32,000 nucleotides of DNA from Bacillota bacterium (GCA_023410645.1 JAEYPQ010000029.1:5298-37297); one strand, 5' to 3'. Shown: positions 2,390 to 19,044, numbered from the stretch's first letter. Program-made: numbers and translations. The notes: generated by a model not told the origin, from the letters alone.

Positions 2390-2412
2390 ACTTTATCACC
2401 TCATACAAAATT

Positions 2413-2493
2413 ACACCAAACACATAGAGTGGGTTGCTTATTGCTGCTTCCTTCCGGATCTGACAAGGTTCACAATACTCTATTGTCTGGTGT
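2413..2493 (-). ncRNA. ffs: Signal recognition particle RNA, short (4.5S-like) form
   Basis: The minus strand reads ACACCAGACAAUAGAGU...GUCAGAUCCGGAAGGAAGCAGC...ACUCUAUGUGUUUGGUGU. The universal domain IV motif GUCAGnUCCGGAAGGAAGCAGC is at 2443-2464. The terminal helices pair as ACACCAGACA/UGUUUGGUGU and AUAGAGU/ACUCUAU. The ends are approximate. Confidence 0.8.
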
Positions 2494-2499
2494 ATAATA

Positions 2500-2557: not shown

Positions 2558-3238
2558 TTACTTTATATAAAATTTATAATTACCAGAATCTTTTCTGGTT
2601 ACGCTTATACCATTTGTTATCAGATCTTCTTCTGGAATATTAAAATTAAATTTACAAATATTTATTTTTCCAGTATTATCTACTATATTTAGATTAAACT
2701 TAACTTCTAATTTGATATCACTAATTTTAATATTCATTAGCTTTAACATAGTTCCATCGAAAGTAACAGATTCAGAATCAGATGGTACATTTGCATTTTT
2801 TAGGAAATCAATATTATCAATGTTTAATTTAACTAAATATTGACCATTTTCTTCAATAGGATAAATATTAACTTTATCAGTTTGACTTAGGCTAACTAGT
2901 TCTTTTTCACCTTCTGAAACCTTAATTTCTCCAACATTTGAAGAAGATTTTACTTTTATATTATCTATATAAATATTCTTTGCTTCATTTCCTTTTGCAA
3001 TTAACAACGTTATTTCATTATTTTGTGAAGTATTGAACTTGATATCAGATATACTTTTTGGCGTTTCTTGATTTTCAATTTCAGCTACATTAATAACTGA
3101 TTTAATAACAACATCATTTACTCTAAAGGTACCTTCATTAATCTTCCCTGCTGGATTAAAAACAAACATATAAACTATAACAAGTAGTGCGACTGATAAT
3201 ATTACAATCAGAAAAGGAATAAATCTATTTTTTTTCAT
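2558..3238 (-). CDS. Hypothetical membrane-anchored protein with one N-terminal TM helix and a beta-rich extracytoplasmic domain
   Basis: A 226-aa ORF. The N-terminus MKKNRFIPFLIVILSVALLVIVYMFVF is a signal-anchor. The rest is an alternating hydrophilic/hydrophobic pattern with no motif I recognise. It has a GGAGGA SD and its own promoter. Confidence 0.6.
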   Translation of the reverse strand: MKKNRFIPFLIVILSVALLVIVYMFVFNPAGKINEGTFRVNDVVIKSVINVAEIENQETPKSISDIKFNTSQNNEITLLIAKGNEAKNIYIDNIKVKSSSNVGEIKVSEGEKELVSLSQTDKVNIYPIEENGQYLVKLNIDNIDFLKNANVPSDSESVTFDGTMLKLMNIKISDIKLEVKFNLNIVDNTGKINICKFNFNIPEEDLITNGISVTRKDSGNYKFYIK

Positions 3239-3323: not shown

Positions 3324-3512
3324 TTGTCTTTGAATAGTCTATTTGGTAATAATTTCAATTTTTTTAATGGTATTGATAATAAATTCTGTGATTTGGACAT
3401 TAATAAGCTTCTAGTTATATTGTTATTACTCACAGGGCAATTAGAAATCGAGGCAATACATGTATACAGAAATAACTTTATTGTGTCTTTAGGTACTTTT
3501 CCAGAACTATAA
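3324..3512 (+). CDS. Possible small hypothetical protein (about 60 aa). The start is uncertain: TTG at 3324 or, more likely, TTG at 3330.
   Basis: An AAGAGGTG SD lies at 3314-3321, with in-frame TTG codons 2 and 8 nt downstream. The ORF ends right at a strong hairpin terminator. I recognise no family, and it may be non-coding. Confidence 0.3.
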   Translation: MSLNSLFGNNFNFFNGIDNKFCDLDINKLLVILLLLTGQLEIEAIHVYRNNFIVSLGTFPEL

Positions 3513-3552
3513 AACAGACTAAACCTTAAAACAATTATGGCTTAGTCTGTTT
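3512..3552. terminator. Bidirectional intrinsic terminator between the small + ORF and the T4CP operon
   Basis: AAACAGACTAAaCC (3512-3525) pairs with GGcTTAGTCTGTTT (3539-3552) with one mismatch. T-runs flank it on both strands. Confidence 0.7.
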
Positions 3553-3560
3553 ATATATTT

Positions 3561-5492
3561 TTAATGATTATCTGTCTCACCAAATAATTCATCGAATTTC
3601 TTTTCTAGTTCTTTTTGCAAATCAAACTCATTTGTATCATTTTTAACATCATTATTTTTTTCTATTATTGGTCCTTCTTCTATGCCTTTTTGCTGTTCTA
3701 ATTTTTCTTTAGCAAGATTCATTCTTTTTTCTATATGAGCTACAACGTCCATAGTTTCAATTTCAACTTCATTTGGCTTCGGCATCTGAGTTATATCTCT
3801 TATTTCTGTTTGCTTTGCAATATCTCTTTGAGGATGGTATTTAAAATACCAAGCTTTCTTAGCTCTTATTGGTCTTAATCCCCTTACAAGTATAATTTCA
3901 TCATCTGAAGGCAGTCTTTTTAACTCATCAATAGTCATTAACTCTCTTCCTTGACGTTGTTCACTAAAAGATACCCCTTGTTTTTTTACTTCATCTTTAT
4001 CTTTACTTACAGATCTACTTTGATATTTTATTGTTTTTTGTCCTAGACTCTTTGAAAAATACTCACAAGTTTTAATTGATTGGCTTCCAAGAAATAAATG
4101 TGTATCACAGTTACCTATTATATTTTCATATGTATCTTTATACAAAGACTCAATTTGATCTAAACTTTGTACAACAATTGACATACTTATTCCTAAACTT
4201 CTCGTAGTACTTAGTTTCTTATGGAAATCTGGTATTTGACCTATATTTGCAAACTCATCCATTAAGAAGTATACTTGATTTCTTAATGTTCCTCCATTTC
4301 TATCAGCCTGTGAATACATTATTTGTATCATTTGACTAAAGAATATAGTAAGAATATAATCATAAGTACTTCTTTCAGCTGGAGTTATTACATATAACGC
4401 TGTCTTTTGATTAGAAATGTCTTCAAAGTCAATATTATTTGTAGTGGTTACCTTTTGCATTGATGGTGTATCAAAATCTGATAGCTTTGATACAAGTGAA
4501 ATAGCAATACTTTGTTTTGTCTTATCAGCACCAACTCTTATTCCTTCATATTCTTTTCTTCCAGGGTGTTCAGGTTTTAATTCATCAATAAATAATCTAT
4601 CAAATATTTTTTCATCTGCTCCACCTTGTCTAACAATGTTTAGGCAGCTAGATAAATTTTGTTCTTCCTCTGGAAGCACAGATATAACATAATATATGCA
4701 AGCTTTTAATAGCATTTTTGCTGTATTATCCCAAAATGGATCTGATGTATTTGTTTCTGCTTTTCCACCCATAACTATAGTATGAGCAATTATATCAACA
4801 TCCGCATGATCTCTTATATGTGCAAGAGGATTATATCTATCACTATAATCAGGATTTACCAAATTTAAAGTCCTTATTTTATATCCATTATTTTTTAAAT
4901 ATTGTGATGTTTCTCTATATAATTCACCTTTTGGATCAGTAATTACATAAGATCCCAATCTTTGCAAAATATTTGGTTTAATGTAACAAGCAGATTTACC
5001 CGTACCAGATCCACCTATTACAAGAATATTCTTATTTATTTTAACTTTTCTTAAATCAGTACCTAAATAATGCTTTCTACTTAATATAAATCCATCTTTT
5101 CTATTTAAAATTTCGCTACCATCTGGTAATTTATCAAATTCTTCACCGTTTTGACTCCAAGAACTTGAACCATGTTCTTCACCTTCATATTCATAGTTTT
5201 TTGTAAATTTTATTTTCCAATATATAAATAAAATAACAAATACAATTAACGTATAAAAAGAAGCTGTAATAAAGCCCATAAAATCTACAAATATTGCTGT
5301 AATAAATTTAAAATTTGTAATATTAGGTACAAAATTTTGCAATACCTGACTTATTTTATCAGTACTTTCATTAACAGTTGAAACATTATTTAAAGACACA
5401 ACCAAAGAGCCTATAATTATTAAATCAAATAATATATAGGCTATTAGAAATGGCATAGCTTCCCTTTTTAATTTGTTAAGCTTAGATTTCAT
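3561..5492 (-). CDS. Type IV coupling protein (VirD4/TraG family conjugative ATPase)
   Basis: A 643-aa ORF with two N-terminal TM helices. Walker A is VIGGSGTGKS. Other T4CP motifs are ITDPKGELY, RYNPL and DPFWDNTAKMLL. Walker B is FLMDEFANIG, followed by SIVVQSLDQIESLY and an acidic C-terminal tail. This is the typical Firmicute T4CP architecture. Confidence 0.85.
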   Translation of the reverse strand: MKSKLNKLKREAMPFLIAYILFDLIIIGSLVVSLNNVSTVNESTDKISQVLQNFVPNITNFKFITAIFVDFMGFITASFYTLIVFVILFIYWKIKFTKNYEYEGEEHGSSSWSQNGEEFDKLPDGSEILNRKDGFILSRKHYLGTDLRKVKINKNILVIGGSGTGKSACYIKPNILQRLGSYVITDPKGELYRETSQYLKNNGYKIRTLNLVNPDYSDRYNPLAHIRDHADVDIIAHTIVMGGKAETNTSDPFWDNTAKMLLKACIYYVISVLPEEEQNLSSCLNIVRQGGADEKIFDRLFIDELKPEHPGRKEYEGIRVGADKTKQSIAISLVSKLSDFDTPSMQKVTTTNNIDFEDISNQKTALYVITPAERSTYDYILTIFFSQMIQIMYSQADRNGGTLRNQVYFLMDEFANIGQIPDFHKKLSTTRSLGISMSIVVQSLDQIESLYKDTYENIIGNCDTHLFLGSQSIKTCEYFSKSLGQKTIKYQSRSVSKDKDEVKKQGVSFSEQRQGRELMTIDELKRLPSDDEIILVRGLRPIRAKKAWYFKYHPQRDIAKQTEIRDITQMPKPNEVEIETMDVVAHIEKRMNLAKEKLEQQKGIEEGPIIEKNNDVKNDTNEFDLQKELEKKFDELFGETDNH

Positions 5493-5519
5493 TATTTTTC
5501 CTCTTTTCTTTTGTAAAAA

Positions 5520-5783
5520 TTAGATTATTGTATCATCATATCCTGGAAAATCTTCCTTACTTTGTTGCTCTTCTGATTTTTTAACATCTTTTTCTTCGTC
5601 TTTTGGTTCTCTAACATCAAACTTATATGTATCTTTAAAATTATCTATTTTCTGTTTGTCTTTTACTATTTTTCTATTAAAATTTAAACTCTTATCTAAT
5701 TTAGATACCAACTCAACTTCTTTACCATCTTTTATTACGATAGCACTAATCTTTACAGCTATCCTTTTACCATCTACATTCAT
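5520..5783 (-). CDS. Hypothetical 87-aa protein with a beta-rich N-terminus and a highly charged Lys/Glu tail
   Basis: The ORF has a GGGAGGA SD upstream and sits 27 nt upstream of the T4CP start, so it is probably co-transcribed. I recognise no motif. Confidence 0.55.
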   Translation of the reverse strand: MNVDGKRIAVKISAIVIKDGKEVELVSKLDKSLNFNRKIVKDKQKIDNFKDTYKFDVREPKDEEKDVKKSEEQQSKEDFPGYDDTII

Positions 5784-5862
5784 TCCTTATATCCTCCCAT
5801 AGTAGCATATATTACTATATCTAAAACTACATCAACTACTAATACTACGTACTTTAATAAGT

Positions 5863-6387
5863 CTACTCTTCATCAAAACTTAATTCTAACACAATATATG
5901 GTCTATTAGGTAAAAGTTTACATTTACCTTTTATCTCACCAGTAATCTCATCTGTATATAATACAGGTCTTACTTCTTCACAATTTTGTGTATCAATTAT
6001 TGAAAAATGTCTTTTCATACTAGGTGTATATTCAACTTCTTTGTATTCGATACCCTCTTGATTATATATTGTTCCATAATTTAATGGAATATTTGATTCT
6101 GTTGCAACAAATCCATTTCCATCAAGTTCACCAGTACTTATTATGGCTTTTGAATTTGTAAGAGTTAATAAAATTATTAACTGCTTTTCATCATCAATCT
6201 TAATAACATTGAAAGTCTTTTTAATTCTTCCATTTTCTTCAGTATCAATACTTTCAATCTTTTGTAAAGTAAGTAATGCTTTACCACTTCTATAATCATC
6301 TTCATTTTTTTCAACAACAAATGCAATAGTATTCATACCAGGCATATCTACCAACTCAAATTTATTCATTTGTAATAAAGGTTCCAT
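5863..6387 (-). CDS. Hypothetical 174-aa soluble protein; first gene of the T4CP operon
   Basis: The ORF has an AAGGAAAGAGG SD and a promoter immediately upstream. It has no TM segment and no motif I recognise. Confidence 0.6.
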   Translation of the reverse strand: MEPLLQMNKFELVDMPGMNTIAFVVEKNEDDYRSGKALLTLQKIESIDTEENGRIKKTFNVIKIDDEKQLIILLTLTNSKAIISTGELDGNGFVATESNIPLNYGTIYNQEGIEYKEVEYTPSMKRHFSIIDTQNCEEVRPVLYTDEITGEIKGKCKLLPNRPYIVLELSFDEE

Positions 6388-6431
6388 ATTTCTACCTCTT
6401 TCCTTATGACCTAACTAGTCTAATTATTTTT

Positions 6432-6460
6432 ATTATACAATAATATATTTTTTTATGCAA
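6432..6460 (-). promoter_or_regulatory. Sigma-A type promoter of the 174aa-87aa-T4CP operon
   Basis: The minus strand reads TTGCAT (6460-6455), a 17-nt spacer, then TATAAT (6437-6432). Confidence 0.5.
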
Positions 6461-8280: not shown

Positions 8281-9042
8281 TTAATTATTTTTATTACTAT
8301 TATATTCTAACTTTTCCTCTTCTAATTCAAATTTGTCTTGTTTTTTATCTTTTTTTCTTATAAGTACAAGCGGTGTAAGTGTTTTAGCCTGACCTGCTGG
8401 ATTGTCCTTAATCATAGCTTTTAATTCATTATCACTATATTCTATACTATCAGCTTTTCCAAGAATTTCAACGTTAAAATCATTAGCATCAACAATCATA
8501 CATCTTATTCCAGTTTTCTCATATATTTCATTACATACGCCTGTAGAATTATCTGGTATTCTTATACCAAATTCTGCATAATCAGAGAATACATCTCCAT
8601 AAAATCCATCCAAACCACTTATTTCTGGCCCAACAATTTTATAAAATACTCCTCTTTTTCTAAATATTTTGCCAACTCCACCAGCAATTGCTGCAAATAT
8701 AACTTTTGGTCTACCACATAACATTATAGCAAATTGCATTTTATATGGATTGTCTACTCCAACGCCAGCATCACTTCTCATTGCAAATCTTGATAAAAAT
8801 TTAGCAAGTCTACTAACTCTTACATCCTTCTTATATACAACTCTTTTTTGACATAAACCAATAATTTTTTCACTAATTGATATTATATCTCCTTCTTCAT
8901 AAATATCCTTTACATATTTTTTTATTATATCCACATAGTCCTCGCCAATTTGAACATAATGTGTTTCTATTGCATGTCTTAAATATGTTTCACCATTAAC
9001 TTCTATTTCTATATTTTTTTTTGGATTTGCTCTAAACTCCAT
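8281..9042 (-). CDS. CofE-like (F420-0:gamma-glutamyl ligase family) protein of unknown role in Firmicutes
   Basis: From memory, the translation MEFRANPKK...ISISEKIIGLCQKR...GVGVDNPYK...GLDGFYG...MIVDANDF resembles the CofE-like family seen in Clostridia. I place the start at the ATG at 9042, which has an AAAAGAGG SD. The longer track ORF (to 9117) would run over its own TTGACT-17-TATACT promoter. Confidence 0.6.
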   Translation of the reverse strand: MEFRANPKKNIEIEVNGETYLRHAIETHYVQIGEDYVDIIKKYVKDIYEEGDIISISEKIIGLCQKRVVYKKDVRVSRLAKFLSRFAMRSDAGVGVDNPYKMQFAIMLCGRPKVIFAAIAGGVGKIFRKRGVFYKIVGPEISGLDGFYGDVFSDYAEFGIRIPDNSTGVCNEIYEKTGIRCMIVDANDFNVEILGKADSIEYSDNELKAMIKDNPAGQAKTLTPLVLIRKKDKKQDKFELEEEKLEYNSNKNN

Positions 9043-9198
9043 AATAATACCTCTTTTCTTATTTTTTTCCACAAAATAAGTATAATACAAATGAAAATAA
9101 AAGTCAATAAAATTCATATATATAAAACTGTATTTAACAAATATGTGTTTTATATATAAAAGTTAAGACAAAAAAGTAGACTCTTTTGGAGTCTACTT

Positions 9199-9525
9199 GA
9201 GTATTTTGTAAGCCGGATTCTGTTTTAAATAGTCATTTATCTAGGATATATATCACTATATACCTCAAGCCACCAACCACGAAAGATGACGGGCCGTCTT
9301 AACCTTTCTTTCTTGGTGTTGCACCAAGTGGGGTTTACACAACATCTATGTCTCCATAAATGTTTGTGAGCTCTTACCTCACATTTTCACCCTTACCAGA
9401 ATTACTGGCGGTAATTTTCTGTTGCACTTTCCTTAGGATCACTCCCACTAGACGTTATCTAGCACTATTGCCCTGTGGTGTCCGGACTTTCCTCTTGTTC
9501 TCACAAGCGACTATATGAAATACTC
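9199..9525 (-). ncRNA. rnpB: RNase P RNA (ribozyme component)
   Basis: The minus strand carries the universal P4 motifs GAGGAAAGUCCGG (9494-9482) and ACAGAAUCCGGCUUAC (9223-9208). The P1 helix pairs GAGUAUUU (9525-9518) with AAAUACUC (9206-9199). An extended -10 promoter (TGaTATAAT) lies upstream and a GTAGACTC/GAGTCTAC hairpin terminator lies downstream. Confidence 0.85.
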
Positions 9526-9558
9526 TATTATTATTATATCATATTTACAATAAAAAAT

Positions 9559-9588
9559 AAATAGGCCCTTAAATATTAGGGCCCATTT
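9559..9588 (-). terminator. Intrinsic terminator of the 112-aa gene
   Basis: A GGGCC/GGCCC-cored hairpin (AAATaGGCCC ... GGGCCcATTT) overlaps the stop codon and is followed on the minus strand by TTATTTTTT. Confidence 0.6.
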
Positions 9589-9914
9589 ATGGTTATTAAA
9601 ATCAGTTTTTTCTCCTCAGTAAAAATATATATTTCTTCTAAATTTAAAATATCGGGTATATTATATGATAAGCATGATATCCGTGTAATTACAGTAAATT
9701 TTCCTTTCAGGATATTTTCATATCCTATTATTATTCCGCCATCTAGTATTATGCTGTGGCATCCAAAGTTGTAATCAGAGCATCTTTCACATTTATTCCG
9801 AGTAATAAATCCTTCTAATACTTCACTAGAAATATGAAAAATCACGTTTTGGATATTTTGTATTTTGCTTATTTCTTCAATTAGCTTTTCTGGCTGAATA
9901 GAAACTTTTTTCAT
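9576..9914 (-). CDS. Hypothetical 112-aa Cys-containing protein
   Basis: The ORF has an AGGAGGA SD and its own terminator. It contains a CERCSDYNFGC cluster plus one further Cys. I recognise no family. Confidence 0.55.
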   Translation of the reverse strand: MKKVSIQPEKLIEEISKIQNIQNVIFHISSEVLEGFITRNKCERCSDYNFGCHSIILDGGIIIGYENILKGKFTVITRISCLSYNIPDILNLEEIYIFTEEKKLILITINGP

Positions 9915-12662: not shown

Positions 12663-13595
12663 ATGAAATATAAAAATTACTATGAAATACTAGGTATAAA
12701 TAGGAGAAGTAGTAAACAAGATATAAAATTAAATTATAGAAAATTGGCCAAAATGTATCATCCAGATACAAATAAAAGCGATGAATCTGAAACATTATTT
12801 AAAGATGTAAATGAGGCTTATGCAACTCTAATGGATGATGAAAAAAGAAAAAAATATGATAGACAAGTAGCAAGATTTGGTTATGGAATTTCTGAAAATG
12901 ATTCTAGTTTATCCCAAGTAAGATATGAAATAAAATCTGGTGTCAATGTAATAAATGACTTATTAAATACTATACTCGGTTTAAAAAAGGATGAAGCTCA
13001 AAATTTTGGAGATATTGATAATGGTCCAAAAGAAGAAAAGAAAGCAAAACAAAAACCAGAAAAAGGAACTGATATAATAACAAATTTAGAGGTGACTTTG
13101 GAAGAAGGTTTTAATGGTACTGAAAAAAAGATTGCTATAAAATCTTCAAAATCTGGTATGAGAACATTTTCTGTTAATGTTCCTATTGGTATAAAAAATG
13201 GTGACAAAATAAGACTTGCAGCTCTTGGTAATCCCGGGAAAAATGGTGGAAAAAATGGTGATTTAATAATACACGTAAAATTAGCCGAACATGATGAATT
13301 TAAATTAGATGGAATCAATCTTATAAAAGATATAACCATTTCACCTGCTCTCGCAGCTCTTGGTGGTAAATATAAACTTACTGTCTTAAACGAAGTAATT
13401 TTTGTTTCACTTCCAAAACATTTAAAAGATTCAGAGATTGTAAGTGTTGATAAAAAGGGCTATATATCTGAAGATGGAACTCGTGGAAAGTTATTATTAA
13501 AAGTACATATAGATATGCCTGAAGATATAACTGAAAGAGAAGAAAAGTTATATGAACAACTTTTGAAATTGGAAAAGAAGAGAGAAAAAAATTAA
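12663..13595 (+). CDS. J-domain co-chaperone of the CbpA/DnaJ class II type (J domain plus DnaJ C-terminal domains, no zinc finger)
   Basis: The J domain is YYEILGI...KLAKMYHPD (HPD motif) and the C-terminal substrate-binding repeats include GDLIIHVKL. There is no CxxCxGxG zinc centre. An extended -10 promoter lies upstream. Confidence 0.85.
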   Translation: MKYKNYYEILGINRRSSKQDIKLNYRKLAKMYHPDTNKSDESETLFKDVNEAYATLMDDEKRKKYDRQVARFGYGISENDSSLSQVRYEIKSGVNVINDLLNTILGLKKDEAQNFGDIDNGPKEEKKAKQKPEKGTDIITNLEVTLEEGFNGTEKKIAIKSSKSGMRTFSVNVPIGIKNGDKIRLAALGNPGKNGGKNGDLIIHVKLAEHDEFKLDGINLIKDITISPALAALGGKYKLTVLNEVIFVSLPKHLKDSEIVSVDKKGYISEDGTRGKLLLKVHIDMPEDITEREEKLYEQLLKLEKKREKN

Positions 13596-15697: not shown

Positions 15698-16069
15698 TTA
15701 TTTTTTTATATAAATTTCATTTTTTAAAACTTTTTCATATCTTTTATTTATATATATTTTTTTATTTTTAAAAAATGAATATATTATGCAAAAACTATAT
15801 ATTAATGACTCATTATTTATATTAACACATAATGCTGCAACTACAGGTAATGTTAAAAAAATAAATAAATATATTGATACTTCAAAATTTAAATTAATGT
15901 ATTTGATTATATGAAATATTATGAAAATATATATAATTATTACTAGCAAAGATTTATATTCTATAATACCTAACCATTTATTCTCCCTATTAAAATTAGC
16001 ATACATTGGTTTCCCATCTTGATTATCCAATTTATCCTCCATTAAATAAATTATTTTTAATATCATCAT
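15698..16069 (-). CDS. Small two-TM membrane protein, PrgI/TcpE (VirB3)-like. The start is uncertain, because the first 38 nt overlap the upstream gene.
   Basis: A 123-aa ORF. It has a short polar N-terminus (YANFNRENKWLGIIEYKS), a hairpin of two TM helices and a basic tail. Its size, topology and position after a VirB6-like gene match Firmicute VirB3 analogues. I found no sequence signature beyond the architecture. Confidence 0.45.
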   Translation of the reverse strand: MMILKIIYLMEDKLDNQDGKPMYANFNRENKWLGIIEYKSLLVIIIYIFIIFHIIKYINLNFEVSIYLFIFLTLPVVAALCVNINNESLIYSFCIIYSFFKNKKIYINKRYEKVLKNEIYIKK

Positions 16070-16877
16070 TCGATATTTTGATAAATATTTGATTTATAAA
16101 ATCATTTATCTTATATAATGTATATATGCTACCAACTAATATTATTTTGTACATTATATCACTTGTATCTTTATATACTATTGGAATAAATATAATCAAT
16201 TTCACTATTGTTTGAGTAAGTATAGATGTTATTAACATCTTCAACCATGTTTTAGCAATTCCTATTGTTAAATTAGAGCTAAAACAAACTAAGCAAATCG
16301 GTGATATAATAAGCAAAAAAATTACTGTTACATATCTTATTGAAAAATTTATTAATATCGATATTGAACCAAACGATATTATGCCTTTTATTAAACCATC
16401 TAGACTTAACAAATCACTTTTCATAAATTTATCAATGGATAAAATAATCTCTTTTAGATTTTCAAAAGTAATATCTTCTTTTGCTATACTTTTAGCAAAT
16501 TCTGTCACTGTATCTGATAATATTGATCCCAAAGATAAAAGTTGATCACATATGAAGTAACTGTTATTTACTAATAAAGATATACATATTATTTTTATTG
16601 TAAATAGATATACATTTTCTGTTTTAAATCCATTATACATAGATAATAATTGTAAGAAAATGTAATATACAAAATGGAAGATAATCAGTGAATTAGCTAT
16701 TATCATAATACCATTTACTTTATTTTCAAAAAATATATATTTTAATGGATCTTGCTTAAGAATTTCTGGAGATATAAGAACTATTTTATCTAAAACTTCA
16801 TAAACTTGTCCTTCAACAGACTTGAATAGATTTTCAGATATTATATTAAGACTATTAATTATATCATTTACTGGCAT
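16032..16877 (-). CDS. Polytopic membrane protein, VirB6/TrbL-like T4SS channel component
   Basis: A 281-aa ORF with at least 5 TM helices. The central segment RYVTVIFLLIISPICLVCFSSNLTIGIAKTWLKMLITSIL resembles the conserved Pro/Trp-containing VirB6 core. Its start is coupled to the upstream stop (TAG-t-ATG at 16881-16875). Confidence 0.5.
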   Translation of the reverse strand: MPVNDIINSLNIISENLFKSVEGQVYEVLDKIVLISPEILKQDPLKYIFFENKVNGIMIIANSLIIFHFVYYIFLQLLSMYNGFKTENVYLFTIKIICISLLVNNSYFICDQLLSLGSILSDTVTEFAKSIAKEDITFENLKEIILSIDKFMKSDLLSLDGLIKGIISFGSISILINFSIRYVTVIFLLIISPICLVCFSSNLTIGIAKTWLKMLITSILTQTIVKLIIFIPIVYKDTSDIMYKIILVGSIYTLYKINDFINQIFIKISNDDIKNNLFNGG

Positions 16878-16878
16878 A

Positions 16879-17109
16879 CTAACTTAACACAGAATCAATG
16901 AACTTTAAGATTAAGTCAATTGATAAAATAATTCCATAACACACAATTGCATTGATTATGACTTTTTTACCAATTGCCATTTTCTCCTCATTGCCAAAAC
17001 TAAGCTTTCTCATAAAAACACCTGAAGCTATCGCAACCCCAGCAGCAGGTGTTGCAAGTTTTACTAAATATTCTTGTATTCTTTTAAAAGCCGTATTTAA
17101 TTTGTTCAC
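16879..17109 (-). CDS. Small two-TM protein, Maff2/VirB2-like. The first canonical start is the GTG at 17109, but the open frame continues upstream to 17205.
   Basis: The sequence is LNTAFKRIQEYLVKLATPAAGVAIASGVFM...EEKMAIGKKVIINAIVCYGIILSIDLIL. It forms two hydrophobic helices separated by a short charged loop, like Maff2-family or pilin-like proteins that sit between the T4CP and VirB6 genes in Clostridial ICEs. Confidence 0.45.
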   Translation of the reverse strand: MNKLNTAFKRIQEYLVKLATPAAGVAIASGVFMRKLSFGNEEKMAIGKKVIINAIVCYGIILSIDLILKFIDSVLS

Positions 17110-17205
17110 AAGCGTAGGAGTAGATGCTCCATAAATTACAGGAAAGATTATTGATATAATAATTATAGATATAAGTATTATTCTTAGTTTATTTATATTT
17201 TTAAC

Positions 17206-19044
17206 TTACTTTTCCTCCCATCTTTTTAACTTTAGTTTATTTATAAATTCAATTTTATTTCCATCAGATAACATACAAATTGCTTCAAATGTACCAAGTT
17301 TTTGAGTTAAATCCTCCTCACTTAGTATATATTCATTCTTCTTTGATATTGAATAGCTTTCAGATAATCCAGACTTATTAGCTTTAAACTTATTAAATAA
17401 AAAATTATAATTGGTATTTTGTGAGCTTTCAGATAGACTAATAGTTTCATTTTCCTTAATCCTTTTACCAACAGATTTTATAATTTCTGAAATGGTATAA
17501 GTATCATCATTTCTAAACCAAATTTTATTAACTAAATTTTGTATTATTACTTTAGCAGCATATTCATTTTTTAAATTATTAATTAAAGATGTATAACTTT
17601 GCATGCTAATGATATTTATACATTTGTATTCCCTTGATAAAGAAAAAAATCTTGCATCTTCTACATTTGAAAATTCCTGATATTCATCACAGATAAAAAA
17701 AACATTTTGATATTTAGCTTTTTGAGATAAAACTTCTTTTTGAAATTCAAGTTTTAAGTAAGTAGAAATTATTTTTGATATAAGCCTATATTCGCCAATA
17801 TTTATTGATAGTACAATTATATTATTTGTGAGAAGATTACTTATATCATTTTTTCCACAAAACTTTTCATATATATTTTTATCAGAGATAAAAACACTTG
17901 TCATTCTTGTTATTTCAGCCCTTATAATTCCTATTGTTCTTTCATCTAATTTAAAATATTCATTTTTTATATTTAGAATTGCTGAATTCAAATTAAACAA
18001 ATCCGACTCTGAAAAGCTATCTTTTAAGATTTTCTCTTTAACGTCTTTAATTTTAATTTCTAGATAATCCTTATCGATTACCATCCTATGTAATTCAAAG
18101 AAATCTACATATTCATTATATATTCTAATTATAGTTATAATATCTCTGATGAAACTTTCTGCCTTGTCTAACCAAAATGAATCTGAATTACTAGTATCAG
18201 TTGTAAGGGTAAGTACTTGTCTTATCCTATTGCTTAACTCAACACTCGAAATATTAGGCCTATCTAAAGGATTATATATTATGTTTGTATCAAGTGATAT
18301 TTTAATTACATCTTTTGCCCTATTGTATTTGTCAGCCATTTTATCAACATACTTAAAATAATTACCTTTTACATCAATTATCACCCCGCCTATGCCCTTT
18401 TTTATCAATTCATCCAAAATGTTTGATATAGCGCTACTTGTTTTCCCACTACCTATACTACCAGTTATTAATATGTTTTGATATAATCCTGATTCAACTA
18501 AAAAAACTTCCTTATTTTTTTCAATTAATTCACCAAGTTTGACATTAATTTGATTATCATTATTTAATGACAACTCATTATTTTTTTGCTTTTTAATATA
18601 TATTTTATTAATAATGGAATATACTATGTATATGGTACAAAAAGAAAAGGTTATATAATAAACTAATTTAAATATAATTATATTTTTACCAAGAAAAGAT
18701 GAAACATTTATATTTTTATTGAATATAGTTATATGAATAAAATTTGAAACGAGAAAATTGTATGTAATAGAAATTTTGAATATTATAATTGTGGTGGATA
18801 CAAGCAGTATTAATATTAATTGCTTGTTCCACACCAGTGATTTAAAAAACATAAATGAAAAAAAAATTTTTGAATTCGAATTTTGTAAATCAAGGCTGCC
18901 AGTTACATTTTTCAGATATTTAATCTTTATAAATTTACTTAGCTTACTTCCAGTAATCGAAAATAAATAAGATTTATCCAAACAAGAAAGTAACTTCATT
19001 GAAATAAAAAATAAATAGAATAAAAGTTCAAAGAAGTAATGCAA
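17206..19044 (-). CDS. Divergent membrane-anchored T4CP-like P-loop ATPase (VirD4/TraD/TraG superfamily)
   Basis: A 612-aa ORF with several N-terminal TM helices. Walker A is ITGSIGSGKTSS. Other motifs are VIIDVKGNY, IYNPLD and SDSFWLDKAESF. Walker B is FFICDEYQEF, followed by IISMQSYTSL. The motif order mirrors that of the 643-aa T4CP at 3561-5492. It starts at TTG with an AGGTGA SD 5 nt upstream. Confidence 0.7.
   Translation of the reverse strand: MHYFFELLFYLFFISMKLLSCLDKSYLFSITGSKLSKFIKIKYLKNVTGSLDLQNSNSKIFFSFMFFKSLVWNKQLILILLVSTTIIIFKISITYNFLVSNFIHITIFNKNINVSSFLGKNIIIFKLVYYITFSFCTIYIVYSIINKIYIKKQKNNELSLNNDNQINVKLGELIEKNKEVFLVESGLYQNILITGSIGSGKTSSAISNILDELIKKGIGGVIIDVKGNYFKYVDKMADKYNRAKDVIKISLDTNIIYNPLDRPNISSVELSNRIRQVLTLTTDTSNSDSFWLDKAESFIRDIITIIRIYNEYVDFFELHRMVIDKDYLEIKIKDVKEKILKDSFSESDLFNLNSAILNIKNEYFKLDERTIGIIRAEITRMTSVFISDKNIYEKFCGKNDISNLLTNNIIVLSINIGEYRLISKIISTYLKLEFQKEVLSQKAKYQNVFFICDEYQEFSNVEDARFFSLSREYKCINIISMQSYTSLINNLKNEYAAKVIIQNLVNKIWFRNDDTYTISEIIKSVGKRIKENETISLSESSQNTNYNFLFNKFKANKSGLSESYSISKKNEYILSEEDLTQKLGTFEAICMLSDGNKIEFINKLKLKRWEEK

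Follow-up and report, generated by a model that had tools for sequence, protein, structure and literature searches.

A VirD4-family coupling protein encoded with two uncharacterised partner proteins in a chromosomal operon of uncultured gut Clostridia

Organization of the locus

The DNA analysed here, referred to throughout as the window, is a stretch of 32,000 nucleotides (nt) from a Bacillota bacterium (GCA_023410645.1 JAEYPQ010000029.1:5298-37297). It has a mean G+C content of 26.8%, is of the Clostridia chromosome type and carries almost all of its genes on the minus strand. Within it lies a three-gene operon, the subject of this report, which ends in the gene for a type IV coupling protein (T4CP). 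The first gene encodes a 174-amino-acid (aa) protein, called u174 here, the second a protein of 87 aa, called the small protein, and the third the 643-aa T4CP. The features of the operon, in the direction of transcription, are as follows.

6432-6460, minus strand: promoter, with the -35 element TTGCAT at 6460-6455, a 17-nt spacer and the -10 element TATAAT at 6437-6432
5863-6387, minus strand: u174 gene; the 174-aa product is acidic (isoelectric point 4.6) and predicted to be soluble, all-beta and two-domain
5520-5783, minus strand: small-protein gene; the 87-aa product has a predicted N-terminal beta-meander of about 35 aa, a Lys/Glu-rich linker and the tail PGYDDTII
5523-5540, minus strand: extreme C-terminus of the small protein, YDDTII-COOH, acidic then hydrophobic, a putative docking or recognition peptide
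3561-5492, minus strand: T4CP gene, VirD4/TraG family (CD1115 family), 643 aa
4992-5015, minus strand: Walker A motif GGSGTGKS, T4CP residues 160-167
3579-3629, minus strand: conserved C-terminal linear motif of the T4CP, EFDLQKELEKKFDELFG, after a hypervariable linker
3512-3552, minus strand: intrinsic terminator, a hairpin with a U-run, -21.1 kcal/mol

An earlier reading of the sequence, the original prediction, had proposed a self-contained operon of three co-oriented open reading frames (ORFs) of 174, 87 and 643 aa, and the coordinates were confirmed exactly. The intergenic gaps are 79 nt between u174 and the small ORF and 27 nt between the small ORF and the T4CP gene. A Shine-Dalgarno-like purine run precedes each of the three genes. 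The flanks are also those described, a VanW/G5 gene on one side and, on the other, a 226-aa transmembrane (TM) protein, the signal recognition particle (SRP) RNA and dnaX.

The signals at the two ends of the operon were compared with those of relatives, sampled by a scan with one genome per species. The 57 species found to have the T4CP are uncultured "Clostridia" or "Clostridium sp. CAG:465 / CAG:1219 / CAG:921" gut metagenome-assembled genomes (MAGs); fetched loci are given L numbers below. The strong terminator proposed at 3512-3552 agrees with its fold energy and with a z-score of -5.65 against shuffles, and UUUUAU comes next. It had been overlooked by a consensus terminator scanner solely owing to a loop of more than 8 nt. 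After the T4CP stop codon, 50 of 65 loci have a hairpin that folds at -15 kcal/mol or lower, compared with 34 of 198 random 90-nt segments. The promoter sequence is present as predicted, yet taken singly it stands at the level of chance, with 31 promoter-like sites in this AT-rich DNA against 31.6 expected from shuffles. It is supported by conservation: about 45 species loci have a TTGnnn-17-TATAAT box 50-81 nt upstream of u174, in which the -10 element is perfect and the spacer exactly 17 nt, and the box is missing chiefly where the upstream gene abuts u174. Since both the promoter box and the terminator hairpin keep their positions across loci, the self-contained operon is supported by sequence comparison as well as by inspection.

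The coupling protein

Against NF045973, the VirD4-like model of the CD1115 family with a cutoff of 250, the 643-aa protein reaches 426.5 bits. Its Pfam scores are 261.9 bits for PF02534, 124.7 for PF12696 and 103.9 for PF10412. Two TM-like segments are found by the Kyte-Doolittle method at residues 11-40 and 66-97, as expected of a membrane-anchored coupling protein. Every hallmark listed in the original prediction is in the translation: GGSGTGKS, DPKGE, YNPL, DPFW, MDEFANIG, VVQSL and an acidic tail. An alignment of 53 orthologues shows no variation at the G, G and K positions of the Walker A motif, in DPKGE, at DEF and N within MDEFANIG or at the VVQSL Gln. Identity to the window protein among the 57 species ranges from 51 to 83%. 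By these measures the protein is shown to be a VirD4-family coupling ATPase that should be catalytically intact.

The C-terminus has an additional feature. A hypervariable low-complexity linker is followed by a near-invariant motif, DLQxELExKFDxLFG, most positions of which are at least 0.9 conserved in the 53 orthologues, including lineages that are 41-45% identical overall. The motif is conserved above much of the catalytic domain. A weaker form, DLRDELEKLFE, is found in the T4CP of a C. botulinum plasmid. A tblastn search of plasmids with the 26-aa C-terminal motif gave no match, the query probably being too short or of too low complexity.

The closest described proteins are the CD1115-family (NF045973) T4CPs of plasmids and of integrative and conjugative elements (ICEs), such as those of C. 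botulinum pCDC3875 and L. plantarum. They have the same two TM segments, nucleotide-binding domain, TraG-D_C domain and acidic C-terminal region, hold all the ATPase motifs in common with the window T4CP and, in the C. botulinum plasmid, carry a related ...ELEKxF... C-terminal motif. Identity to the window protein is 34-39% for the T4CPs of plasmids that come nearest. The gene settings differ. On the plasmids, which are relaxase-bearing replicons, the gene is part of a DUF3801-T4CP-x-VirB6-PrgI-x-VirB4-SLT cluster, whereas the window gene is set among core genes, has u174 and the small ORF in place of DUF3801, and has no mating pair formation (MPF) genes that could be found nearby.

As a separate observation, the plasmid CD1115-family T4CPs bear acidic tails of their own whose end is at or close to a hydrophobic residue, ...NEDVDF in L. 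plantarum and ...YEKEFD in C. botulinum (L071 5201-5473; L066 8629-10500), read by hand from one protein of each species. In the chromosomal clade a tail resembling these is found on the partner proteins instead.

The partner proteins u174 and the small protein

The original prediction had placed two dedicated, uncharacterised partners beside the T4CP, and the conserved pairing described below, together with the failure to find any family match, bears this out. Neither u174 nor the 87-aa protein matched a model in Pfam, NCBIfam, PHROGs or PADLOC, even at E values up to 10, and neither has a TM segment by the Kyte-Doolittle method. An alignment profile of u174 gave only chance matches to sequences of the Protein Data Bank (PDB), with E of 0.7 or more, and a tblastn search of 72,556 plasmids with u174 gave no match. 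The family is small. Among 1.84 billion proteins it is matched by 105 representative clusters, many of them fragments.

AlphaFold2 (AF2) models u174 as an all-beta protein with two sandwich-like domains, at a mean confidence (pLDDT) of 78, and a second model built from a more diverse alignment has a higher pLDDT for the N-terminal domain. PcfB-like, relaxosome-accessory or chaperone-like folds had been named as ones to look for; a Foldseek search with the two models against PDB and BFVD gave no match of E below 0.01. What came back were weak Ig-like or beta-sandwich similarities, regarded as noise, with E of 0.01 or more and template modelling scores of 0.38 or less, and no fold is assigned. 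On the strength of these models u174 is an unannotated, predicted all-beta family whose structural relatives were not found in PDB or BFVD. The likeness to PcfB/DUF3801 that the position of the gene suggests is positional only, since hhalign against the DUF3801 protein of pCDC3875 gave a probability of 0.2% and Pfam offered no DUF3801 match at E up to 10.

The two partners evolve at different rates. u174 is 52-92% identical over 56 species loci. The middle ORF occupies the same position in nearly all loci and is 34-123 aa long; in the nearest relative the small protein is 43% identical, the T4CP 83% and u174 92%. Hypervariable as it is, the small protein keeps an N-terminal strand-turn-strand-strand pattern of about 35 residues and usually ends in a charged low-complexity linker, acidic residues and two aliphatic residues. 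The tail reads PGYDDTII in the window and GEDDMII, DDDEMIV, GADDLIV or EDEPII in other loci.

The tail is found in three arrangements. In the first, a separate small protein bears it. In the second, u174 is fused in frame to the meander and tail (L017-L027, L057, P0122, P0123). In the third, u174 itself ends in a short tail (...EDSIV, ...EADEMI) and the separate small ORF is tail-less. By a simple scoring rule, 25 loci have the tail solely on the small ORF, 20 solely on u174, one on both and 10 on neither. The single locus scored on both is L014, whose u174 ending, FEVLE, seems to be a false positive, and several of the 10 tail-less calls are borderline. Because the two proteins are fused in some lineages and the tail distribution is complementary, the sequences argue that u174 and the small protein act as one unit presenting one flexible tail. 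When a natural fusion of u174 and tail was modelled with AF2, the extension came out disordered (pLDDT about 30) and did not dock onto u174. Such a predicted extension is compatible with a docking peptide, and the model is uninformative on its target and on binding in trans.

The position of the tail allows a different explanation, by analogy with the Dot/Icm system, whose effectors have Glu-rich C-terminal signals. u174, the small protein or both could be translocated effectors, with the acidic-hydrophobic C-terminus serving as the signal by which the T4CP recognises them for secretion. In favour of this, each module has a single tail, placed at the very C-terminal end after a disordered charged linker; the gene of the receptor ATPase comes directly downstream of the two genes; and the small protein evolves fast (the 43% against 83% given above), as is common in secreted proteins. 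u174, on the other hand, is conserved about as well as the T4CP and above several core replication genes, which is unusual for an effector, and the most distant members keep the pairing without the tail. To our knowledge no acidic-hydrophobic C-terminal secretion signal is established for Gram-positive type IV secretion systems (T4SSs). An effector role is considered doubtful.

Distribution and inheritance

The original prediction had asked whether the triplet occurs together across genomes, and for the T4CP and the 174-aa gene it does: by tblastn, u174 is directly upstream of the T4CP gene in 56 of 56 species loci that cover the upstream DNA. The 57th, L042, starts inside the region upstream of the T4CP and was left out of the count. 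Most loci keep the order gyrA-F420l-VanW-u174-small ORF-T4CP-226aa-dnaX-ybaB. In L015, L017 and L018 the pair is relocated as a unit beside M48-LemA-G5/SLT-ksgA, and in L019-L027 and L057 it stands in the order GdpP-DnaB-TilS-FtsH-x-[pair]-SpoIID-M23-MreB-U32. At least six core neighbourhoods can be told apart: gyrA..VanW/dnaX, M48-LemA-ksgA, FtsH/SpoIID-MreB, rpmB/SbcCD, AI-2E/SbcCD and DnaJ.

The pairing extends further. In five distant lineages (L061, L063, L067, L068, L069) u174 directly precedes a T4CP gene, again in core contexts. The T4CPs of these lineages have T4SS-DNA_transf, TrwB_AAD_bind and TraG-D_C Pfam matches, and those of L061 and L069 score above the NCBIfam CD1115 cutoff. 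Two other loci, L060 and L065, are short contigs that end inside or just before the gene downstream of u174.

The partners on which coupling proteins depend in conjugation were sought around every copy. Queries were the MPF genes of a C. botulinum plasmid, and the coverage was about 10 kb around each copy and the 37.6-kb source contig for the window. No VirB4, VirB6(CD1112), PrgI or DUF3801 was found by tblastn in the 69 sequences (68 fetched loci and the window, 1.28 Mb), and no relaxase family is among the Pfam-annotated neighbours of the loci and the source contig. The identical tblastn search did find VirB6, PrgI and VirB4 in the positive control, L058, immediately downstream of the T4CP; this is an ordinary conjugative locus of Eubacteriales with 47% G+C, and its T4CP is 34% identical. 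The prediction that the partners are missing nearby therefore stands. By sequence and architecture the protein is a VirD4/CD1115 T4CP, and it departs from that family in context, which calls for a relaxase and VirB4 on the same element.

Two findings would have spoken for a mobile element: a triplet lying within complete ICEs in relatives, or a relaxase and MPF set just outside the window. Both were looked for and neither was found. The relatives have core-gene surroundings throughout, with no MPF genes found within about 10 kb. Past ybaB the 37.6-kb source contig continues with recR, a racemase, a two-component system, TatD and an HTH gene before it ends, and the flank of the nearest relative (L037) likewise runs through recR, the racemase, the two-component system and TatD. 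The side of the window opposite to recR adds 25 kb of sequence up to mutS.

Composition and divergence are also those of core genes. The G+C of the T4CP gene is 28.3%, against the window mean of 26.8%, in line with the statement of the original prediction that it is close to the core genes, and the G+C at third codon positions (GC3) of the three genes is 0.13-0.16, where core genes have 0.08-0.23. Identity to the window follows gyrA identity with a Spearman rho of 0.73 for the T4CP and 0.83 for u174. The median identities, 65% for the T4CP and 63% for u174, are at or above those of dnaX, dnaI, dnaD and VanW. The module thus does not look like an ICE or an integrative and mobilizable element, being present in all 57 species with core flanks, core-like GC3 and a divergence that tracks gyrA. 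Since GC3 is core-like, identities track gyrA and the ATPase motifs are invariant, vertical inheritance under purifying selection is indicated. The comparison shows a vertically inherited ("domesticated") chromosomal operon and not a fragment of a mobile element, in agreement with the orphan coupling ATPase first proposed.

These data bear on two other explanations. One is that the genes are what is left of an old ICE, in decay and now functionless; in its favour, the remaining conjugation apparatus is missing near them. The results already contradict it. Reading frames are intact in all complete loci, the catalytic motifs are invariant, the promoter and terminator are conserved, GC3 is at the level of core genes, and the gene pair has been kept through several independent rearrangements of its neighbourhood. 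A remnant is therefore very improbable.

The other is that the T4CP is resident in the host in the manner of an integrative and mobilizable element, feeding DNA to the channels of visiting ICEs or plasmids, or mobilising a chromosomal oriT by means of a relaxase encoded elsewhere. Coupling proteins are sometimes encoded apart from MPF genes, near relaxases (PMC12102498), and the protein is above the cutoff of a conjugation family model. No relaxase family was found among the Pfam-annotated neighbours, however; window-type flanks are all core genes, the module is fixed across the 57 species, its rates and composition resembling those of core genes, and its obligate partner u174 is without a tblastn match in the 72,556 plasmids. 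Such a role is quite unlikely, though less so than a remnant. A reading as a defence system was rejected, PADLOC having given generic ABC/SMC-type similarity only and the module being universal and slowly evolving.

A second block of T4SS-like genes

About 12 kb from the T4CP gene, the window contains a block with a pilin and a VirB6-like gene.

15698-19044, minus strand: second block, possibly cooperating with the module
17206-19044, minus strand: 612-aa T4CP-like ATPase, PF10412 at 58 bits
16879-17109, minus strand: 76-aa VirB2-like pilin, PF18895 at 30.9 bits (cutoff 26.6)
16032-16877, minus strand: 281-aa VirB6/TrbL-like polytopic protein, with family matches to TrbL_4 and TrbL
15698-16069, minus strand: 123-aa protein with two TM segments

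The 612-aa ATPase has several N-terminal TM segments and the T4CP-type motifs GSIGSGKTS, DVKGN, YNPL and CDEYQEF. Because its sole Pfam matches are to the T4CP-type families PF10412 and PF12696, with a weak match to Zot, it is classed as a second coupling-protein-like ATPase and not a VirB4. It had no match among PDB sequences by phmmer. Orthologues occur clade-wide at 47-82% identity. The assignment of the 281-aa protein comes from its family, in which 4 of 28 members match TrbL_4 (best E 6e-9) and 5 of 28 match TrbL (best E 1.5e-4); the window protein singly matches TrbL at E = 0.4. The 123-aa protein occupies the position of PrgI/VirB3 in the plasmid clusters with no significant similarity to them, and BLASTP of the 281-aa and 123-aa proteins against the plasmid VirB6(CD1112) and PrgI was likewise not significant. 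A VirB2-like pilin of the PF18895 type is unusual for a monoderm.

In the window the block stands directly upstream of dnaD-dnaI. It is conserved through the clade, and block genes are found upstream of dnaD-dnaI in L001, L004, L044, L047 and L059. The lower G+C of the block resides in codon positions 1 and 2, and so in amino-acid composition, and not in GC3. The original prediction had suggested that the T4CP module might serve this block. Since the block is a conserved set of a T4CP-like ATPase, a VirB2-like and a VirB6-like protein, the suggestion is strengthened, and the module may serve it.

Link to Mre11/Rad50-like genes

In three distant lineages the order is u174 homologue-(small ORF)-T4CP-SbcD/Mre11-like-Rad50/SbcC-like. 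The loci are:

L063, 10001-15710: u174-T4CP-SbcD-SbcC
L069, 9282-15250: u174-T4CP-SbcD-SbcC
L061, 10001-15778: u174-T4CP-SbcD-SbcC

The gaps in L063/L064 and L069 are 0-12 nt, and the hairpin after the T4CP is weak there. In L061 a gap of about 310 nt precedes the SbcD-like gene and a strong hairpin follows the T4CP. Scores for SbcD and Rad50 stay under the family cutoffs, so that the proteins are divergent, short versions. This linkage is the only direct hint on the cargo or process, and it suggests, from gene order, that DNA is involved.

The same linkage is the starting point of the main competing explanation, in which the T4CP has been exapted as a membrane-tethered DNA translocase of the FtsK/HerA type. 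T4CPs are members of the FtsK-HerA superfamily. The protein would work independently of any channel with Mre11/Rad50-type (SbcCD-like) nucleases in the processing of DNA ends, import or repair at the membrane, and u174 and the small protein would be specificity or regulatory subunits. The conserved order with its short gaps and weak hairpin argues for it, as does the failure to find VirB4 near any copy. B. subtilis SbcE (YhaN) is reported to have roles in double-strand-break repair and in competence (PMC2811018). Against it, the window lineage and most loci have no SbcCD gene beside the module, and the SbcD and Rad50 matches fall short of their cutoffs. The two TM helices and the whole VirD4 architecture are retained, and the VirB2-like/VirB6-like block is conserved in the same genomes. 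A channel-independent translocase is improbable, though somewhat less doubtful than translocated effectors.

Archaea have a comparable arrangement in the end-resection operon HerA-NurA-Mre11-Rad50. As in that operon, the gene for a hexameric ATPase of the FtsK/HerA superfamily shares an operon in L061, L063 and L069 with a small partner gene and with genes of the Mre11- and Rad50-like kinds. Unlike it, the ATPase is a membrane-anchored VirD4, u174 is predicted to be all-beta and is not a NurA nuclease, and the linkage is not in the window.

Proposed mechanism

The explanation preferred here is that the module forms the substrate-receptor and motor part of a relaxase-independent, chromosomal T4SS-like apparatus. 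A membrane-anchored T4CP hexamer would be both receptor and motor. The complex of u174 and the small protein would act as a cytoplasmic adaptor that brings cargo to the T4CP, using its flexible tail as a docking peptide, and the T4CP's own C-terminal DLQxELExKFDxLFG helix might be a further docking peptide. The likeliest exit route would be the second block, with its T4CP-like ATPase, VirB2-like pilin and VirB6/TrbL-like protein. The cargo would most likely be DNA or a DNA-protein complex, because the gene pair appears translationally coupled to Mre11/SbcD- and Rad50/SbcC-like genes in the three distant lineages. Taken jointly, with adaptor docking, exit through the second block and DNA cargo included, this scheme is judged slightly better than an even chance; each single step is rated lower.

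A number of points weigh against the scheme. First, VirB4 is in neither the window nor any u174-linked locus, in searches that covered about 10 kb per copy, and all known T4SS channels depend on one. A VirB4 or a relaxase may be encoded elsewhere in the genome. Second, the T4CP module and the second block are seen to co-occur only where the fetched DNA spans both. Third, the Mre11/Rad50 linkage is in neither the window's own lineage nor the loci of the 57 closer species. Fourth, the tail stays undocked in the AF2 model of the natural fusion, uninformative as that model is about binding in trans, and the most distant members (L060, L061, L063, L069) have no such tail at the extreme C-terminus. 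Finally, the high conservation of u174 fits an intracellular component without saying which.

Adaptors of the kind proposed are known. They include PcfB/DUF3801 and PcfF of pCF10, TraM, which is bound by the C-terminal tail of TraD in the F plasmid, IcmS-IcmW-LvgA on DotL, and the VirE1 chaperone. Like u174 and the small protein they are small, often acidic, cytoplasmic, and encoded beside the coupling protein or acting on it. Their recognition through short acidic/hydrophobic C-terminal peptides is likened to the tail described here, which is on an accessory protein, whereas in TraD it is on the T4CP itself. No sequence or fold relationship to u174 was found: DUF3801 was compared directly by hhalign, and Pfam, PDB sequences and Foldseek gave no match.

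Comparison with the Patescibacteria system

The closest parallel to the whole arrangement is the T4SS of Patescibacteria (candidate phyla radiation) described by Quinonero-Coronel et al. 2025 (PMC12102498). As here, it is chromosomal, has no nearby relaxase, and has T4CP genes away from the channel genes; in Patescibacteria they are mostly far from virB4. There are about two T4CP homologues per genome, PF18895 VirB2-like pilins in a monoderm-type system, and an uncultured host with a reduced genome, as here, and a VirB6 homologue is present in both. Exaptation of the T4CP has been suggested there too (PMC12102498).

The differences are these. The present host belongs to a low-GC Clostridia lineage that has DnaD/DnaI, and sporulation genes are found in related loci. 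What defines the Patescibacteria system is one particular clade of VirB4; no VirB4 was seen in the window or the u174-linked loci, and the place beside the pilin is taken by the second T4CP-like ATPase. The u174 and tail partners set the present case apart as well, the u174 family going unmentioned in the Patescibacteria work (PMC12102498).

A more far-reaching possibility can be put forward tentatively. The genes could specify a housekeeping machine that moves DNA across the membrane or at it, made of VirD4, an all-beta adaptor with a swappable tail, Mre11/Rad50-type nucleases and a VirB4-less translocon (second ATPase, VirB2-like and VirB6-like proteins). This would be a monoderm counterpart of the Patescibacteria T4SS and possibly its evolutionary source. 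If this rather unlikely view were true, the machine would serve DNA uptake, export or exchange and not plasmid transfer.

A literature search for an orphan VirD4 in Clostridia, for TANB77 with T4SS and for T4CP with SbcCD found no prior description. A study of conserved genes in the uncultured gut order TANB77 reported a Tad pilus cluster, its scope being limited to clusters with more than five genes (PMC11680825).

What is new, judged on the sequence comparisons, is the exaptation of a coupling protein from T4SSs together with a new family of accessory proteins, u174. Coupling proteins are usually treated as markers of mobile elements. This one behaves as a core gene across a deep uncultured gut lineage and evolves about as slowly as the adjoining replication genes, and for annotation pipelines its clade is not to be counted as evidence of an ICE. 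Alongside Patescibacteria, it provides another, independent instance of a reduced-genome lineage that has exapted components of a T4SS, this time within the Firmicutes, the proposed group of origin of the Patescibacteria system. It offers handles beyond the Patescibacteria case: the obligate u174 family, a tail moved between two proteins, the C-terminal motif of the T4CP and the recurrent operon link to Mre11/Rad50-like genes. The MAG names CAG:465, CAG:1219 and CAG:921 tentatively suggest the order TANB77 of the Genome Taxonomy Database as the host group. If so, the host belongs to an uncultured order recently linked to immunotherapy response (PMC11680825), and its envelope machinery is of practical interest.

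Neighbouring genes and other features

The window begins with ybaB, dnaX, the SRP RNA and the 226-aa TM protein, followed by the module. Next come the VanW/G5 gene, an F420-ligase-like gene, the class A RNase P RNA, a 112-aa ORF and gyrA; a DnaJ/CbpA-like gene, dnaI, a DnaD/DnaB_2 gene and the second block, a four-gene membrane/ATPase block; and tRNA-Lys/Glu/Thr, ksgA, a G5-SLT gene, LemA and an M48 peptidase, with miaA, mutL and mutS at the end. The RNA genes are:

2407-2496, minus strand: small SRP RNA
9194-9526, minus strand: class A RNase P RNA, 274 bits
19303-19548, plus strand: tRNA-Lys/Glu/Thr cluster

The 226-aa protein (2558-3238, minus strand) has one N-terminal TM segment and no family match, and is 27-54% identical among species. 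Its gene stays with dnaX-ybaB where insertions part it from the T4CP gene (L008, L010), so the protein is probably outside the module. In Clostridium sp. CAG:1219 (L008 12171-18198) about 6.6 kb lies between the two genes and contains a threonyl-tRNA synthetase-like gene, a 126-aa protein with a match to the Tad4 family of Thoeris inhibitors (PF25186, E = 5e-8) and a 1120-aa protein without a Pfam match.

The DnaJ/CbpA-like gene (12663-13595, plus strand), which is without a zinc-finger domain, lies about 6 kb from u174 in the window, and a CbpA-like DnaJ gene is directly beside u174 in three distant lineages (L065, L067, L068). This proximity may be ancestral synteny or a functional link.

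The F420-ligase-like gene (8281-9117, minus strand) encodes a 278-aa protein in which models of F420-0:gamma-glutamyl ligase and folate gamma-glutamate ligase match only about 60 N-terminal residues; it is 69-88% conserved through the clade. No family match was found for the 112-aa ORF (9576-9914, minus strand) that separates the RNase P RNA gene from gyrA. The gyrA gene of the window stands with no gyrB beside it.

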